Source of the DNA: Escherichia coli
GTDB taxonomy: Bacteria > Pseudomonadota > Gammaproteobacteria > Enterobacterales > Enterobacteriaceae
NCBI RefSeq assembly: GCF_050920415.1
Contig: NZ_CP169309.1
Reading direction: 5' to 3' (one strand)
Length of the DNA: 64,000 nt
Positions within the stretch are counted from its first letter, which is position 1; each line of letters starts with the position of its first letter. Both the position numbers and the translations under genes were made by a program. A model generated the notes under the pieces. The model was not told where the DNA came from, did not search any database, and saw only the letters and a list, made by a program, of their open reading frames with translations. Shown piece by piece: positions 52,604-56,289 of this stretch.

Positions 52604-54271
52604 GTGGCTCAATTCGTTTATACCATGCATCGTGTCGGCAAAGTTGTTCCGCCGAAACGTCATATTTTGAAAAACATCTCTCTGAGTTTCTTCCCTGGGG
52701 CAAAAATTGGTGTCCTGGGTCTGAACGGCGCGGGTAAGTCTACCCTGCTGCGCATTATGGCGGGCATTGATAAAGACATCGAAGGTGAAGCGCGTCCGCA
52801 ACCGGATATCAAGATTGGTTACCTGCCGCAGGAACCTCAGCTGAACCCGGAACACACCGTGCGTGAGTCCATTGAAGAAGCGGTTTCTGAAGTGGTTAAC
52901 GCTCTGAAACGTCTGGATGAAGTGTATGCGCTGTACGCCGATCCGGATGCCGATTTTGACAAGCTGGCCGCTGAACAAGGCCGTCTGGAAGAGATCATTC
53001 AGGCTCATGACGGTCATAACCTGAACGTTCAGCTGGAGCGTGCGGCTGATGCGCTGCGTCTGCCGGACTGGGACGCGAAAATCGCTAACCTTTCCGGTGG
53101 TGAGCGTCGTCGCGTGGCGTTGTGCCGCCTGCTGTTGGAAAAACCAGACATGCTGCTGCTCGACGAACCGACCAACCACCTGGATGCCGAATCCGTAGCG
53201 TGGCTGGAACGCTTCCTGCACGACTTCGAGGGCACCGTGGTGGCGATTACCCACGACCGTTACTTCCTCGATAACGTTGCAGGCTGGATCCTCGAACTTG
53301 ACCGCGGTGAAGGTATTCCGTGGGAAGGTAACTACTCCTCCTGGCTGGAGCAGAAAGATCAGCGTCTGGCGCAGGAAGCTTCACAAGAAGCAGCGCGTCG
53401 TAAGTCGATCGAGAAAGAGCTGGAGTGGGTACGTCAGGGAACTAAAGGCCGTCAGTCGAAAGGTAAAGCACGTCTGGCGCGCTTTGAAGAGCTGAACAGC
53501 ACCGAATATCAGAAACGTAACGAAACCAACGAACTGTTTATTCCGCCAGGACCGCGTCTGGGCGATAAAGTGCTGGAAGTCAGCAACCTGCGTAAATCTT
53601 ACGGCGATCGCCTGCTGATTGACTCCCTGAGCTTCTCGATCCCTAAAGGGGCGATCGTCGGGATCATCGGTCCGAACGGCGCGGGCAAATCAACACTGTT
53701 CCGTATGATCTCTGGTCAGGAACAACCAGACAGCGGCACCATCACTTTAGGTGAAACGGTGAAACTGGCATCTGTCGATCAGTTCCGTGACTCAATGGAT
53801 AACAGCAAAACCGTTTGGGAAGAAGTTTCCGGCGGGCTGGATATCATGAAGATCGGTAACACCGAGATGCCAAGCCGCGCCTACGTTGGCCGCTTCAACT
53901 TTAAAGGGGTTGATCAGGGTAAACGCGTTGGTGAACTCTCCGGTGGTGAGCGTGGTCGTCTGCATCTGGCGAAGCTGCTGCAGGTTGGCGGCAACATGCT
54001 GCTGCTCGACGAACCGACCAACGACCTGGATATCGAAACCCTGCGTGCGCTGGAAAACGCCCTGCTGGAGTTCCCGGGCTGCGCGATGGTTATCTCGCAC
54101 GACCGTTGGTTCCTCGACCGTATCGCCACACACATTCTGGATTACCAGGATGAAGGTAAAGTTGAGTTCTTTGAAGGTAACTTTACCGAGTACGAAGAGT
54201 ACAAGAAACGCACGCTGGGCGCAGACGCGCTGGAGCCGAAGCGTATCAAGTACAAGCGTATTGCGAAGTAA
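52604..54271 (+). CDS. ettA: energy-dependent translational throttle ABC-F ATPase
   Basis: 555 aa with two ABC cassettes (Walker A GLNGAGKST and GPNGAGKST; signatures LSGGERRR and LSGGERGR). Confidence 0.95.
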   Translation: MAQFVYTMHRVGKVVPPKRHILKNISLSFFPGAKIGVLGLNGAGKSTLLRIMAGIDKDIEGEARPQPDIKIGYLPQEPQLNPEHTVRESIEEAVSEVVNALKRLDEVYALYADPDADFDKLAAEQGRLEEIIQAHDGHNLNVQLERAADALRLPDWDAKIANLSGGERRRVALCRLLLEKPDMLLLDEPTNHLDAESVAWLERFLHDFEGTVVAITHDRYFLDNVAGWILELDRGEGIPWEGNYSSWLEQKDQRLAQEASQEAARRKSIEKELEWVRQGTKGRQSKGKARLARFEELNSTEYQKRNETNELFIPPGPRLGDKVLEVSNLRKSYGDRLLIDSLSFSIPKGAIVGIIGPNGAGKSTLFRMISGQEQPDSGTITLGETVKLASVDQFRDSMDNSKTVWEEVSGGLDIMKIGNTEMPSRAYVGRFNFKGVDQGKRVGELSGGERGRLHLAKLLQVGGNMLLLDEPTNDLDIETLRALENALLEFPGCAMVISHDRWFLDRIATHILDYQDEGKVEFFEGNFTEYEEYKKRTLGADALEPKRIKYKRIAK

Positions 54272-54280
54272 TGCGTAAAA

Positions 54281-54314
54281 TGCCGGATGCGGCGCGCCAG
54301 CATCGCATCCGGTA
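54281..54314. repeat. REP element after ettA
   Basis: tgccggatgcggcgcgccagcatcgcatccggta palindrome. Confidence 0.8.
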
Positions 54315-54326
54315 ATAGTTAAATGA

Positions 54327-54623
54327 TTAATGGGAGGCAAGTTCCCGGAAAAAGGCAGGATTTTCTTTAATTGTGGCAAGTACTTTTGCAGCCAATCCCG
54401 TAGGATTTCTTCGCTTCGATTCCCAGCTTTTAATGGTATCCACACTGGTTCCCAGAGCTTTTGCCATCTCACTTTGCGAAACGTTGAGTTGCTCACGAAT
54501 AGCTTTAACATCCGCAATTTCGTAGCGGGTCACCCGTGCAGGTTCTTTTAAACCTTGTTTAATCTCGACAGCCTCTTCCAGAGAGGTTTTCAACTCATCA
54601 AAAAAACTCATTTTATACCTCAC
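54327..54623 (-). CDS. XRE-family HTH protein, putative antitoxin of a toxin-antitoxin-like pair
   Basis: 98-aa ORF with a C-terminal HTH (LNVSQSEMAKALGTSVDTIKSWESKRRNPTGLAAKVL); its start overlaps the upstream toxin ORF by 11 nt. Absent from K-12 at this position. Confidence 0.6.
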   Translation of the reverse strand: MRYKMSFFDELKTSLEEAVEIKQGLKEPARVTRYEIADVKAIREQLNVSQSEMAKALGTSVDTIKSWESKRRNPTGLAAKVLATIKENPAFFRELASH

Positions 54624-54945
54624 CTTTGAGCAGTTTCGTCAACTTCTTTAGTTGAGCTTTTTCCGTATCTGTCAGACTGTCTTTGGCATTCTTCGGATAG
54701 GCCATAATCAAATAAATAATCTCTTCCGTCGCCAGAAAGTAAATTATTCTGACACTACCACTTTTTCCCTGTGAACCCGCAGCCATTCGGACTTTACGCA
54801 ATCCACCAGTCTGCTGAATGAGATCACCTTTATCGGGAGTTCCGATGAGTTCTTTTTGCAATTCCTTTAATTCATCATCGGTTGCAATCTGCTTGATCTG
54901 ACGCGTAAACATTGGCGTCTCTATAAATATTATCGCCTTGCCCAT
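54613..54945 (-). CDS. RelE/ParE-superfamily (HigB-like) putative toxin
   Basis: ORF trimmed to MGKAIIFIETPMF... (110 aa) with GGLRKVRMAAGSQGKSGSVRIIYFLATEEIIYLIMAYPKN, typical of RelE/HigB-like toxins; RBS-like agggaagggta just upstream of the ATG; toxin-first gene order. Confidence 0.55.
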   Translation of the reverse strand: MGKAIIFIETPMFTRQIKQIATDDELKELQKELIGTPDKGDLIQQTGGLRKVRMAAGSQGKSGSVRIIYFLATEEIIYLIMAYPKNAKDSLTDTEKAQLKKLTKLLKGEV

Positions 54946-54959
54946 TACCCTTCCCTGGC

Positions 54960-55000
54960 AGGTACATTGTACACCAAAATGGAGTACTAAGTACACTTTT
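54960..55000 (-). promoter_or_regulatory. putative promoter/operator of the toxin-antitoxin pair (GTAC-containing palindromes)
   Basis: ggtacattgtacacc and gagtactaagtacac inverted repeats 15-55 nt upstream of the toxin start. Confidence 0.3.
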
Positions 55001-55036
55001 GAATCAGTAATATCACTCAACATCTTATAAAGATGA

Positions 55037-56269
55037 TTATCCCTGCTCCCCCATCATCTCCCGCACCAACTCCACGCAGCGCAGGAAACGGCTGTCGTAA
55101 TCGTCCTCTTCAACCCGCACAAATTCGATATTGTTCTCTTCCAGCATTTCCACCAGCAAGTTCTGGAACTCTTTGCGATCCACCGAACTGCCGAGACTGC
55201 GTAAACCATCCGCCACCCACGGCGTGTTGTTCTCCAGCAGAATCACCAGATCAAAACGGTATTCATCGATCAGCGCCTGTACGAACGGATGCTCGCGCCC
55301 TTCGTACTTTTTGCAGAACGCCTGAGTTGTCACAAAATCGGTGTCGATAAACGCCACTTTATTGGCATATTTTACTGCAAAATCAATATATTGAGCGTGT
55401 CCAAGTGCGATTTTATCGTAGTCGGAATACTGCAATGCGATCTCATCGCCGCCAAGATGTGAAAAGACATAATCGCGACCATATTCCCATGCACTGGTAG
55501 TGTTGAAGATATTGGCAAGTTTGTTTACCAGGGTGGATTTACCGCTCGATTCGCCGCCGAGGATCGCCACGGTGCGCACAAAGAACGGCTTCACTTCGGT
55601 AGGAATATATTCCCAGTAGCGGAACGGATTTTCGCGGATCTGCGCACCACTGATACTCATAAAAGTACGTTTCGGATCGACCAATACCGTTTCGATCCCC
55701 AGATGTTCCATATACTGCGGCGCGTCGGCTTCTTCCGAGGTGTAGATCAGATCCGGCTGGATCCCTTTTTCAGCCATAAACTTTTTGATGCCGTTGCTCC
55801 ACACATCCCAGCCATGCGGATACGGCTCCATGCCCTCTTCGTTGAATGCATGAATGCGAATATTTTTCTGATATTTAAAAGTTTGCAATAACCAGCGCAG
55901 ACGATCCGGCACCGTGGGCTGCTGCGACATGGCGCTGTCTTCGAACAACGCGCGGTCGCGGGTAGCGTCAAAGCCCATAATGATATGCAGCTCGTCAACC
56001 TGACTACAGGCACGCTGGATAAGGTAGATATGTCCGGTATGCAGCGGGTAAAACTTACCGAATACAACACCAATAGTTTTCTTCTGCCGGGGAAATTCAA
56101 GTCCCAAATAACGGTGCAACGCCTCCAGCTTTTGCGCGCTGGGGCTTTTAATTTTGGCATTCAGTAACTGGCTTAAATACCCTTTGGTCATACCGCTGGC
56201 ATCAGCCACCTGCTGTAGCGTACAGCCCTGTTGCTTGATGGCAGTTTTCAGATAATCAAATGACGACAT
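55037..56269 (-). CDS. nadR: bifunctional NMN adenylyltransferase / ribosylnicotinamide kinase and NAD regulator
   Basis: ORF trimmed to MSSFDYLKTAIKQQGCTLQQVADASGMTKGYLSQLLN... (N-terminal HTH), 410 aa. Confidence 0.93.
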   Translation of the reverse strand: MSSFDYLKTAIKQQGCTLQQVADASGMTKGYLSQLLNAKIKSPSAQKLEALHRYLGLEFPRQKKTIGVVFGKFYPLHTGHIYLIQRACSQVDELHIIMGFDATRDRALFEDSAMSQQPTVPDRLRWLLQTFKYQKNIRIHAFNEEGMEPYPHGWDVWSNGIKKFMAEKGIQPDLIYTSEEADAPQYMEHLGIETVLVDPKRTFMSISGAQIRENPFRYWEYIPTEVKPFFVRTVAILGGESSGKSTLVNKLANIFNTTSAWEYGRDYVFSHLGGDEIALQYSDYDKIALGHAQYIDFAVKYANKVAFIDTDFVTTQAFCKKYEGREHPFVQALIDEYRFDLVILLENNTPWVADGLRSLGSSVDRKEFQNLLVEMLEENNIEFVRVEEDDYDSRFLRCVELVREMMGEQG

Positions 56270-56289
56270 ATCTCCCTCCCTATCTCTCA

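Follow-up and report, generated by a model that had tools for sequence, protein, structure and literature searches.

A probable HigB-2/HigA-2-type toxin–antitoxin module downstream of nadR in Escherichia coli, and its remnants in K-12 and other lineages

What are the two small genes that lie between ettA and nadR in some E. coli chromosomes, and how does this locus relate to that of K-12? We analyzed a 64,000-nt stretch of E. coli DNA (contig NZ_CP169309.1 of assembly GCF_050920415.1), hereafter the window, in which two adjacent minus-strand ORFs separate ettA (52604–54271, plus strand) from nadR (Table 1). The original prediction had described them as a toxin-first, HigBA-like type II toxin–antitoxin (TA) pair. 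Both ORFs are present, and the upstream one encodes a 110-aa product with the two predicted motifs, GKSGSVRIIYF...IIYLIMAYPKN. The open-access literature yielded no experimental work on the E. coli pair, the gene nadS being mentioned only via PIRT-Seq. Judging from homology and genomic context, we estimate a probability of about four in five that the pair is a functional type II TA module of the HigB-2/HigA-2 type.

The cassette has a GC content of 42%, versus 50–58% in the flanks. For the toxin gene, the longest mechanical ORF starts at ATG 55023 and would specify 136 aa. We prefer the 110-aa form that starts at ATG 54945 and ends at TAA 54613–54615, because 31 of 55 homologs are exactly 110 aa long, the RefSeq annotation likewise gives 110 aa, and a conserved operator/promoter motif falls within the longer ORF. 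For nadS, the original prediction had proposed a 98-aa product whose gene overlaps the toxin gene by 11 nt. That form, starting at GTG 54623, is merely the longest mechanical ORF. The start codon is likely ATG 54611, 1 nt past the toxin stop, since the NadS family model is covered over its whole length of 94 residues, 53 of 55 NadS homologs are 94 aa long, and a gap of 1 nt is the commonest arrangement of the two genes (30 of 55 loci). The sequence GGTGAGG lies 6 nt upstream of this ATG; by alignment, the K-12 remnant of the locus (see below) keeps it as GGCGAGG. GGAG/AGGG-like runs are seen in homologous loci at the position equivalent to that of the Shine–Dalgarno-like element of the toxin gene. 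Between nadR and the toxin gene is a spacer of 91 nt, in which a promoter/terminator scan predicted no terminator-like site. At the other end of the cassette, the REP-like hairpin is likely to serve as a bidirectional terminator or stabilizer, and the K-12 spacer contains the same REP motif, GCCGCATCCGGCA. No RNA family was detected in a scan of 54200–55100 against Rfam (E up to 1).

Table 1. Features of the nadR–ettA intergenic region, in window coordinates
Feature	Position	Strand	Remarks
Toxin gene	54613..54945	-	110 aa + TAA; by homology a HigB-2-type, RelE-family mRNA endonuclease
Antitoxin gene nadS	54327..54611	-	94 aa + TAA; HigA-2-type protein
nadS Shine–Dalgarno GGTGAGG	54618..54624	-	Within the last toxin codons; read from sequence
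Toxin Shine–Dalgarno-like AGGGAAGGG	54948..54956	-	Precedes toxin ATG; read from sequence
Operator-like site O2 GTACAATGTAC	54962..54972	-	Proximal; overlaps putative -10 TACAAT (54966-54971)
Operator-like site O1 GTACTTAGTAC	54984..54994	-	Distal; overlaps putative -35 TGTACT (54990-54995)
REP-like hairpin CCGGATGCG...CGCATCCGG	54283..54312		Inverted repeat between the convergent nadS and ettA stops
nadR	55037..56269	-	Upstream neighbor, context only; same strand as toxin gene

Searches with the toxin pointed to a single family. Pfam PF06296 was matched over residues 13–106 (E 5.9e-10) and HigB-2 in the PDB (8a0x, 5ja8) over residues 6–102 (E 7.5e-17), a sequence similarity to HigB-2 that is far beyond chance. 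PF06296 was also found in all listed full-length close homologs of the toxin; for two truncated entries, no Pfam match is recorded. A Gp49 match was weak and secondary (E 0.0013). Neither PF05015 (Rts1-type HigB) nor PF05016 (K-12 RelE) was among the Pfam hits with E up to 10, and NCBIfam returned no toxin model. RefSeq names the product 'type II toxin-antitoxin system RelE/ParE family toxin'. Matches to Crn1 and CARF fell far below cutoff and were set aside as noise.

In the Vibrio cholerae protein (VcHigB2), alanine substitutions at Arg51, Arg64, Tyr82 and Lys84 reduce activity by 170- to 3000-fold (Hadzi et al., PMC5416850). These residues align to R53, R66, Y83 and K85 of the window toxin, all four of which are invariant in an alignment of 55 sequences (the window toxin, the Vibrio protein and 53 homologs) and are predicted to be catalytic. 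The window toxin does differ from VcHigB2 in the β2–β3 loop. In VcHigB2 this long loop is rich in Lys/Arg and has been proposed to dock on 16S rRNA (PMC5416850). The corresponding loop of the window toxin is much less basic: it reads AAGSQGKSGSV, with one basic residue, as compared to ASKGKGKRGGS, with four, in the equally long Vibrio loop. The consensus loop of the subfamily is likewise low in charge, and its G60 and K61 do not vary across 29 sequences. A basic β2–β3 loop is a trait of the Vibrio protein and not of the Pfam family.

The antitoxin belongs to a named family. It scored 182.6 bits (cutoff 60) against the NCBIfam model NF041265, NadS, over positions 1–94 of 94, again far beyond chance, and the expected XRE-type helix–turn–helix (HTH) was recovered as Pfam HTH_3 (6.1e-10). 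As a single sequence, NadS matched HigA-2 in the PDB at 2.2e-6 and in the HTH only, and a PDB search with just the N-terminal 41 residues gave nothing meaningful. Recognition of the remainder needed a family profile. Built from 29 members, the profile aligned with HigA-2 from end to end (positions 3–92 against 5–101, E 4e-11), taking in the N-terminal helix by which HigA-2 neutralizes HigB-2. Residues 1–32 of NadS are predicted to form the toxin-binding helix and strand; residues 33–94 are the XRE HTH domain of dimerization and DNA binding. We also considered an MqsA-type antitoxin, which would have an N-terminal zinc-binding CxxC domain and a C-terminal HTH. NadS reached 38 bits against TIGR03830 (cutoff 61.8), in the HTH part only, and contains no cysteine; the Pfam MqsA_antitoxin match (6.1e-4) spans model positions 59–130. 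We rejected this assignment.

Structure prediction gave a similar picture. We modeled the pair with AlphaFold2 as a toxin–linker–antitoxin fusion, using an alignment paired by locus; the model had a pLDDT of 82.8 and a pTM of 0.74. In it, the toxin consists of strand 3–9, helices 11–20 and 23–35, strands 49–56, 63–71 and 76–84, and helix 93–107. The model thus shows the hallmarks of the RelE-like fold: a pair of helices at the N terminus, an antiparallel sheet, and helix α3 at the C terminus. The best Foldseek match of the toxin part was 5jaa_D (TM 0.85, rmsd 2.6), and the antitoxin part fell on HigA-2 chains, its C-terminal domain matching 5j9i at TM 0.79–0.85. NadS was modeled in the fusion with a helix at 1–18, a strand at 26–32 and then the HTH helices. 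Residues 21–30 had a pLDDT of 52 when NadS was modeled alone, with the strand gone, versus about 95 when fused to the toxin. These models predict that the N-terminal segment is disordered in free NadS and folds on the toxin, which fits the folding-upon-binding of HigA-2.

Upstream of the toxin gene are two copies of the motif GTAC-N3-GTAC, O1 and O2, with O1 22 nt upstream of O2. They lie over a putative promoter with a good -10 (TACAAT), a weak -35 (TGTACT) and a spacer of 18 nt. This promoter is our own reading of the sequence and carries less weight than a scan hit would: a consensus scan gave no sigma-70 site in the nadR–toxin spacer, and the hits it did give were all inside ORFs and at chance level. 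The motif itself is recurrent. Of 57 loci, 52 have it 27–83 nt ahead of the toxin start, in genera that range from Serratia to Halomonas and Thioalkalivibrio, as against a total of 70 matches in 386,632 nt of locus sequence, and the two-site arrangement is also seen in Serratia, Kluyvera and some Enterobacter loci. Thus an inverted-repeat operator over the module's own promoter is predicted here, from the motif, in the form of two GTAC-N3-GTAC copies.

The footprinted VcHigA2 operator, TGTACGC-N5-GCGTACA, spans the -35 to the -10 (PMC11006873). It has the TGTAC core in common with the window sites, whose half-sites are separated by N3 rather than by an effective 9 nt. The base-contacting residues R68, E71, N72 and R77 of VcHigA2 align to D58, K61, S62 and R67 of NadS, only the last being kept. 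Because both the base-contacting residues and the half-site spacing differ, the window operator is analogous to that of VcHigA2, not identical. NadS may nonetheless bind O1 and O2, and we would expect the same autorepression logic with a different DNA specificity.

Taken together, these findings suggest how the module would work. By homology, the toxin would enter the ribosomal A site and cut translated mRNA, using R53, R66, Y83 and K85. The 94-aa NadS would neutralize it through the N-terminal ∼32 residues, which are probably disordered in the free protein and are predicted to adopt a helix and a strand on the toxin. A dimer of the C-terminal HTH domain would bind the two GTAC-N3-GTAC sites over the -35 and -10, such that the operon represses itself. 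Upon loss or proteolysis of NadS, toxin would be freed and translation arrested.

To see where else the pair occurs, we scanned one genome per prokaryotic species, using a pattern-based search, and recovered 57 loci with a close relative of the toxin. A NadS homolog lies directly downstream of the toxin gene in 56 of them, and the one exception runs into a contig edge. NadS homologs of the close relatives are 68–86% identical. None of the 57 loci is adjacent to nadR, and in the other Escherichia species and in Salmonella, each species represented by one genome, the same scan gave no match to the toxin. In Serratia and Kluyvera, the pair is chromosomal and sits between a FecCD-type transporter operon and metK; other copies are on 5–7 kb mobilizable plasmids with MobA/MobC and a replicase. 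A plasmid collection held 889 records with relatives, of which Acinetobacter formed the largest group (306). Small plasmids of Yersinia, Citrobacter, Pectobacterium, Hafnia, Shigella and Klebsiella carry the closest of these relatives, at about 80% identity, and chromosomal NadS is 82% identical to one plasmid antitoxin. Some loci, in Halomonas, Xenorhabdus and Thioalkalivibrio, have a truncated toxin gene and an intact antitoxin gene. PHROG families exist for both proteins; a phage origin was considered and rejected, as only 7 records of the phage collection have a relative, all with <60% identity and several not truly phage. These two small co-oriented genes are thus paired in unrelated contexts, in the manner of type II TA modules. 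In view of the pairing, the nadR-free contexts and the plasmid carriage, the pair is a mobile two-gene cassette, found across Gammaproteobacteria at unrelated chromosomal sites and on small mobilizable plasmids. NadS is named for no more than the address of its gene in E. coli, the link to nadR being absent elsewhere.

Of 5426 complete E. coli genomes, 673, or about one in eight, carry the toxin gene, always as a single chromosomal copy, with at least 95% identity, and always downstream of nadR. This survey, one of the checks suggested with the original prediction, fits the accessory status that had been assumed. Carriers include UTI89, CFT073, NU14 and E2348/69, and both genes are annotated in a RefSeq record that matches the 765-bp spacer of the window at 100%. 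In another ∼4290 genomes, the match is limited to about 140–155 bp of the spacer. The K-12-type spacer, of 307 bp, retains the final ∼28 nt of the toxin gene and, of the antitoxin gene, the first 38 codons. We examined eight toxin-less genomes, seven natural and one engineered K-12 derivative, and all eight, including K-12 and O157, share one toxin-deletion junction, which leads from 3 nt past the nadR stop into the final ∼28 nt of the toxin gene and on through the nadS Shine–Dalgarno to the 5' part of nadS.

Three groups of remnants can be distinguished. In K-12 and O157, a 55-aa ORF remains, with 38 NadS residues followed by 17 residues from REP sequence. In a second group, the nadS start codon is changed from ATG to ATA and there is a 1-nt deletion. 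In a third, ATG has become TTG, 10 nt are deleted, and an island (aldo/keto reductase, SDR, SRPBCC, BhsA-like) replaces the REP spacer. Two strains were dismissed as variants: HS-02, at first sight a third variant, has a sequence of homopolymer-ridden assembly noise, and Trp01 is an engineered lab deletion rather than a natural variant. The nadS stump is 94.3% identical to the window, compared with 94.6% for nadR and 96.5% for ettA. Synonymous and non-synonymous codon differences number 2 and 5 in the stump, 62 and 4 in nadR, and 56 and 1 in ettA. Given the shared junction and a stump as diverged as the nadR and ettA flanks, we regard K-12 as a deletion derivative. On the simplest reading of these sequences, the cassette already occupied this site early in the history of E. 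coli, its toxin gene was lost in a single deletion, and nadS, left orphaned, decayed afterwards. This reverses the original view of ettA and nadR as simply adjacent in K-12 and of the pair as an insertion.

Among carriers, both genes appear to be under constraint. Compared with UTI89, the toxin gene of the window has six synonymous codon differences and one non-synonymous, and nadS has two and none. The 100%-matching record, UTI89, CFT073 and E2348/69 all share one NadS protein, under a single accession. One toxin allele stands out. WP_001298496.1, found in CFT073, BH100 and NGF1, carries K85I, and the counterpart of K85 in Vibrio is the residue at which alanine substitution was most damaging. 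Nineteen of 60 evenly spaced rows of a ranked list were 100.0% identical to this allele, suggesting that roughly a third of carriers may have K85I. A frequency of this order suggests that toxin activity may be dispensable in E. coli.

This raises the question of whether the module is still alive. A decaying, functionally dead module, with a toxin too weak to matter and NadS as a leftover repressor, would account for decay being the rule at the site, where the sampled non-carriers have no toxin gene and a truncated nadS. It would also account for the K85I carriers, for a ribosome-docking loop less basic than that of Vibrio, and for the toxin-truncated loci with intact antitoxin genes in other genera. 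Yet in the window both ORFs are full length and the four catalytic residues are intact, the low charge of the loop is the norm for the family, and the substitutions that separate window and UTI89 are almost all synonymous. For the window pair, we therefore consider inactivity unlikely. Far harder to sustain is the idea, invited by the gene name, that NadS regulates NAD metabolism together with NadR and that the upstream gene encodes an accessory partner rather than a toxin. Position and orientation could be read that way, as the cassette follows nadR on the same strand after just 91 nt and without a predicted terminator in the gap, and so could the translation of the K-12 remnant (PIRT-Seq, PMC12350097). 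However, nadR is never the neighbor elsewhere and the toxin gene is directly upstream in all 56 uncut loci; small plasmids carry the NadS homolog beside mob and rep genes; NadS aligns end to end with an antitoxin, HigA-2; and the E. coli remnants have lost the HTH, or the start codon, in different lineages. These findings largely refute a role in NAD regulation, to which we give next to no credence.

A role in defence is a different matter, as it concerns what the chromosomal copy is for rather than how it works, and is compatible with a HigB-2/HigA-2-type mechanism. The module might act in abortive infection of phage, or against addiction to the ∼80%-identical HigBA2-type modules of plasmids. 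Close relatives are indeed present on many 5–7 kb mobilizable plasmids of Enterobacterales, chromosomal NadS is close to a plasmid antitoxin, the two proteins have PHROG families, and RelE/ParE toxins have been discussed as defence toxins (PMC11980606). Against this, PADLOC gave only weak generic HTH hits and CARF noise, at E 1e-5 or weaker; the phage records are just seven and distant; there are no defence-island neighbors; and a strong benefit is hard to reconcile with how often the module is lost or inactivated in E. coli. We consider such a role unlikely, and any benefit to the host would be a conjecture of ours. The persistence or phage-defence role offered in the original prediction is hence unsupported, the context suggesting nothing of the kind. 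The reading that best accommodates the window pair is a HigB-2/HigA-2-type TA module.

What, then, of the stump in K-12, which is translated according to PIRT-Seq (PMC12350097)? The 55-aa remnant in K-12 and O157 keeps exactly the predicted neutralizing segment (38 residues, helix plus strand), with the HTH gone. In V. cholerae, a 20-residue HigA2 peptide suffices to neutralize HigB2. One may ask whether the translated remnant serves as a constitutive, orphan mini-antitoxin against plasmid-borne HigB2-type toxins. If so, K-12 would harbor an anti-addiction peptide fossilized from a dead TA module. Other lineages no longer have the start codon, and the substitution pattern is relaxed, both of which make this very unlikely.

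Some of this is already known: the family is well characterized in Vibrio, and RefSeq labels both genes. Added here are a connection of NadS to HigA-2, the series of decay states at this locus and the K85I allele, a contribution of modest value without a new mechanism. The opaque RefSeq name 'NadS' is now tied to a structurally understood antitoxin family, HigA-2, and the small translated 'nadS' ORF of K-12 is the stump of a TA module, not a partner of nadR. A single site offers a natural series of decay, from the intact pair through K85I and toxin deletion to loss of the HTH or the start codon, which should be useful for studying how chromosomal TA modules die. A caution also follows: not every ExPEC genome with the pair should be counted as TA-active.

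Comparison with characterized systems helps to place the module. Its closest counterpart is HigB-2/HigA-2 of V. cholerae (VCA0468/0469; 5JAA, 5JA8, 8A0X). The two share the toxin-first order and, in the toxin, PF06296, about 35–40% identity, the R/R/Y/K active site and the IIY(Y/F) sliding strand. Both antitoxins combine an N-terminal helix-plus-strand neutralizing segment with a C-terminal XRE HTH, and both operators have TGTAC-type half-sites over the promoter. They differ in that the E. coli toxin has a much less basic β2–β3 loop, NadS has changes at three of the four base-contacting positions, and the Vibrio operator is single whereas the window has GTAC-N3-GTAC twice. Moreover, the Vibrio module resides in a superintegron cassette and the E. 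coli module at a fixed chromosomal site. In the databases, the NCBIfam 'NadS family protein' (NF041265) and the RefSeq RelE/ParE toxin, for example WP_000007436.1 and WP_000513551.1, are this same gene pair.

A plasmid-borne relative has been studied in Acinetobacter baumannii. HigBA2Ab of pAB120 consists of a toxin-first RelE-superfamily RNase and an HTH antitoxin, is autoregulated and stabilizes its plasmid (Armalyte et al. 2018, PMC5906591). Its gene order, toxin superfamily and HTH antitoxin resemble those of the window pair, which also has relatives on small plasmids. Its toxin is described as a GP49-domain protein (PF05973), a domain to which the window toxin has just a weak match, and the Acinetobacter relatives are about 50% identical to the window or less. 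HigBA of Proteus vulgaris Rts1 (PF05015) and RelBE of K-12 (PF05016) also have RelE-superfamily, ribosome-dependent mRNases as toxins, of other Pfam families. In RelBE, the antitoxin gene comes first and the antitoxin has a ribbon–helix–helix fold. Rts1 HigBA resembles the window pair in its toxin-first order; Rts1 HigA is fully folded and leaves the active site uncovered (PMC5416850). The original call of a HigBA-like, toxin-first type II system hence stands as regards the RelE-superfamily toxin, the XRE-HTH antitoxin and the gene order, and is amended as to type, which is HigB-2/HigA-2 and not Rts1 HigBA.

As for the fate of the locus, a parallel exists within E. coli. Chromosomal ccdO157 is, as summarized in PMC7167474 from Mine et al. 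2009, intact in some lineages and degraded in others, with REP sequence where it is absent. It differs from the window locus in its toxin family, CcdB being a gyrase poison, and in its site, folA–apaH. Like the window locus, it is a chromosomal TA module at a fixed intergenic site, with intact and degraded states in different lineages.

In K-12 and O157, which lack the toxin gene, what remains of nadS is a 55-aa ORF located 33 nt downstream of nadR. This ORF encodes antitoxin residues 1–38 followed by 17 REP-encoded residues, and the retained antitoxin segment is predicted to comprise the toxin-binding helix and strand. The K-12 ORF is translated, according to PIRT-Seq (PMC12350097). In the window, a REP-like inverted repeat is positioned between the convergent stop codons of nadS and ettA; in K-12, the same REP family is expanded where the HTH-coding half of nadS would be.

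Some E. coli strains carry an island in place of the REP spacer and ettA, and the nadR–ettA gap is therefore a variable site. Genes of the island encode an aldo/keto reductase, an SDR oxidoreductase, an SRPBCC protein, a BhsA/YdgH-like protein and an alkene-reductase fragment. At the locus of the laboratory production strain Trp01 (L073), the initial ∼13 codons of nadS are joined to creA-adjacent sequence, a junction consistent with an engineered deletion of the region from ettA towards creA. The locus of HS-02 (L076, NZ_CP172818.1 4485704-4488140), annotated by PGAP as 'hypothetical protein', was rejected as a biological variant. Its deposited sequence is rich in long A/T homopolymer runs and frameshifts, which look like uncorrected long-read error.

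Features of the nadR–ettA region in the window and in other E. coli loci
Feature	Location	Remarks
REP-like perfect 9-bp inverted repeat	window 54283-54312	arms CCGGATGCG / CGCATCCGG
55-aa 'nadS' ORF	L001:2444-2611 (K-12-type strain AML003_ev01)	window counterpart 54498-54641
Island after nadS stump	L003:1-2400 (strain E1); L071 (strain 18KM2445)	replaces REP spacer and ettA
K85I toxin allele	L075:701-1033 (BH100); L077:401-733 (CFT073)	WP_001298496.1

Comparison of nadR (55037-56269) with its K-12 counterpart (L001) gave 94.6% nucleotide identity; codons differ synonymously at 62 positions and non-synonymously at 4. Such divergence is unusually high for an E. coli core gene. Against the UTI89 locus (L074), identity is 94.4% over the 3′ 609 nt of nadR versus 98.5% over the adjoining TA region, and this contrast in sequence identity may reflect breakpoints of recombination near the cassette. 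The longest nadR ORF in the window (55037-56290) encodes 417 aa beginning MRDREGDM, exceeding by 7 codons the 410-aa RefSeq NadR that neighbors NadS (MSSFDYLK...). This mechanically assigned start is probably not the true one.

Among genomes that carry the cassette, one toxin allele has its catalytic lysine replaced (K85I), while the antitoxin is without change. Exactly this allele was found in 19 of 60 evenly sampled rows of carrier genomes, and hence it appears to account for about one-third of them. In other genera, a full-length antitoxin gene lies beside a truncated or frameshifted toxin gene at five cassette loci (L059, L060, L062, L063 and L064, from Xenorhabdus, Halomonas and Thioalkalivibrio). 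The order of decay in these loci, toxin first, is the same as in E. coli.
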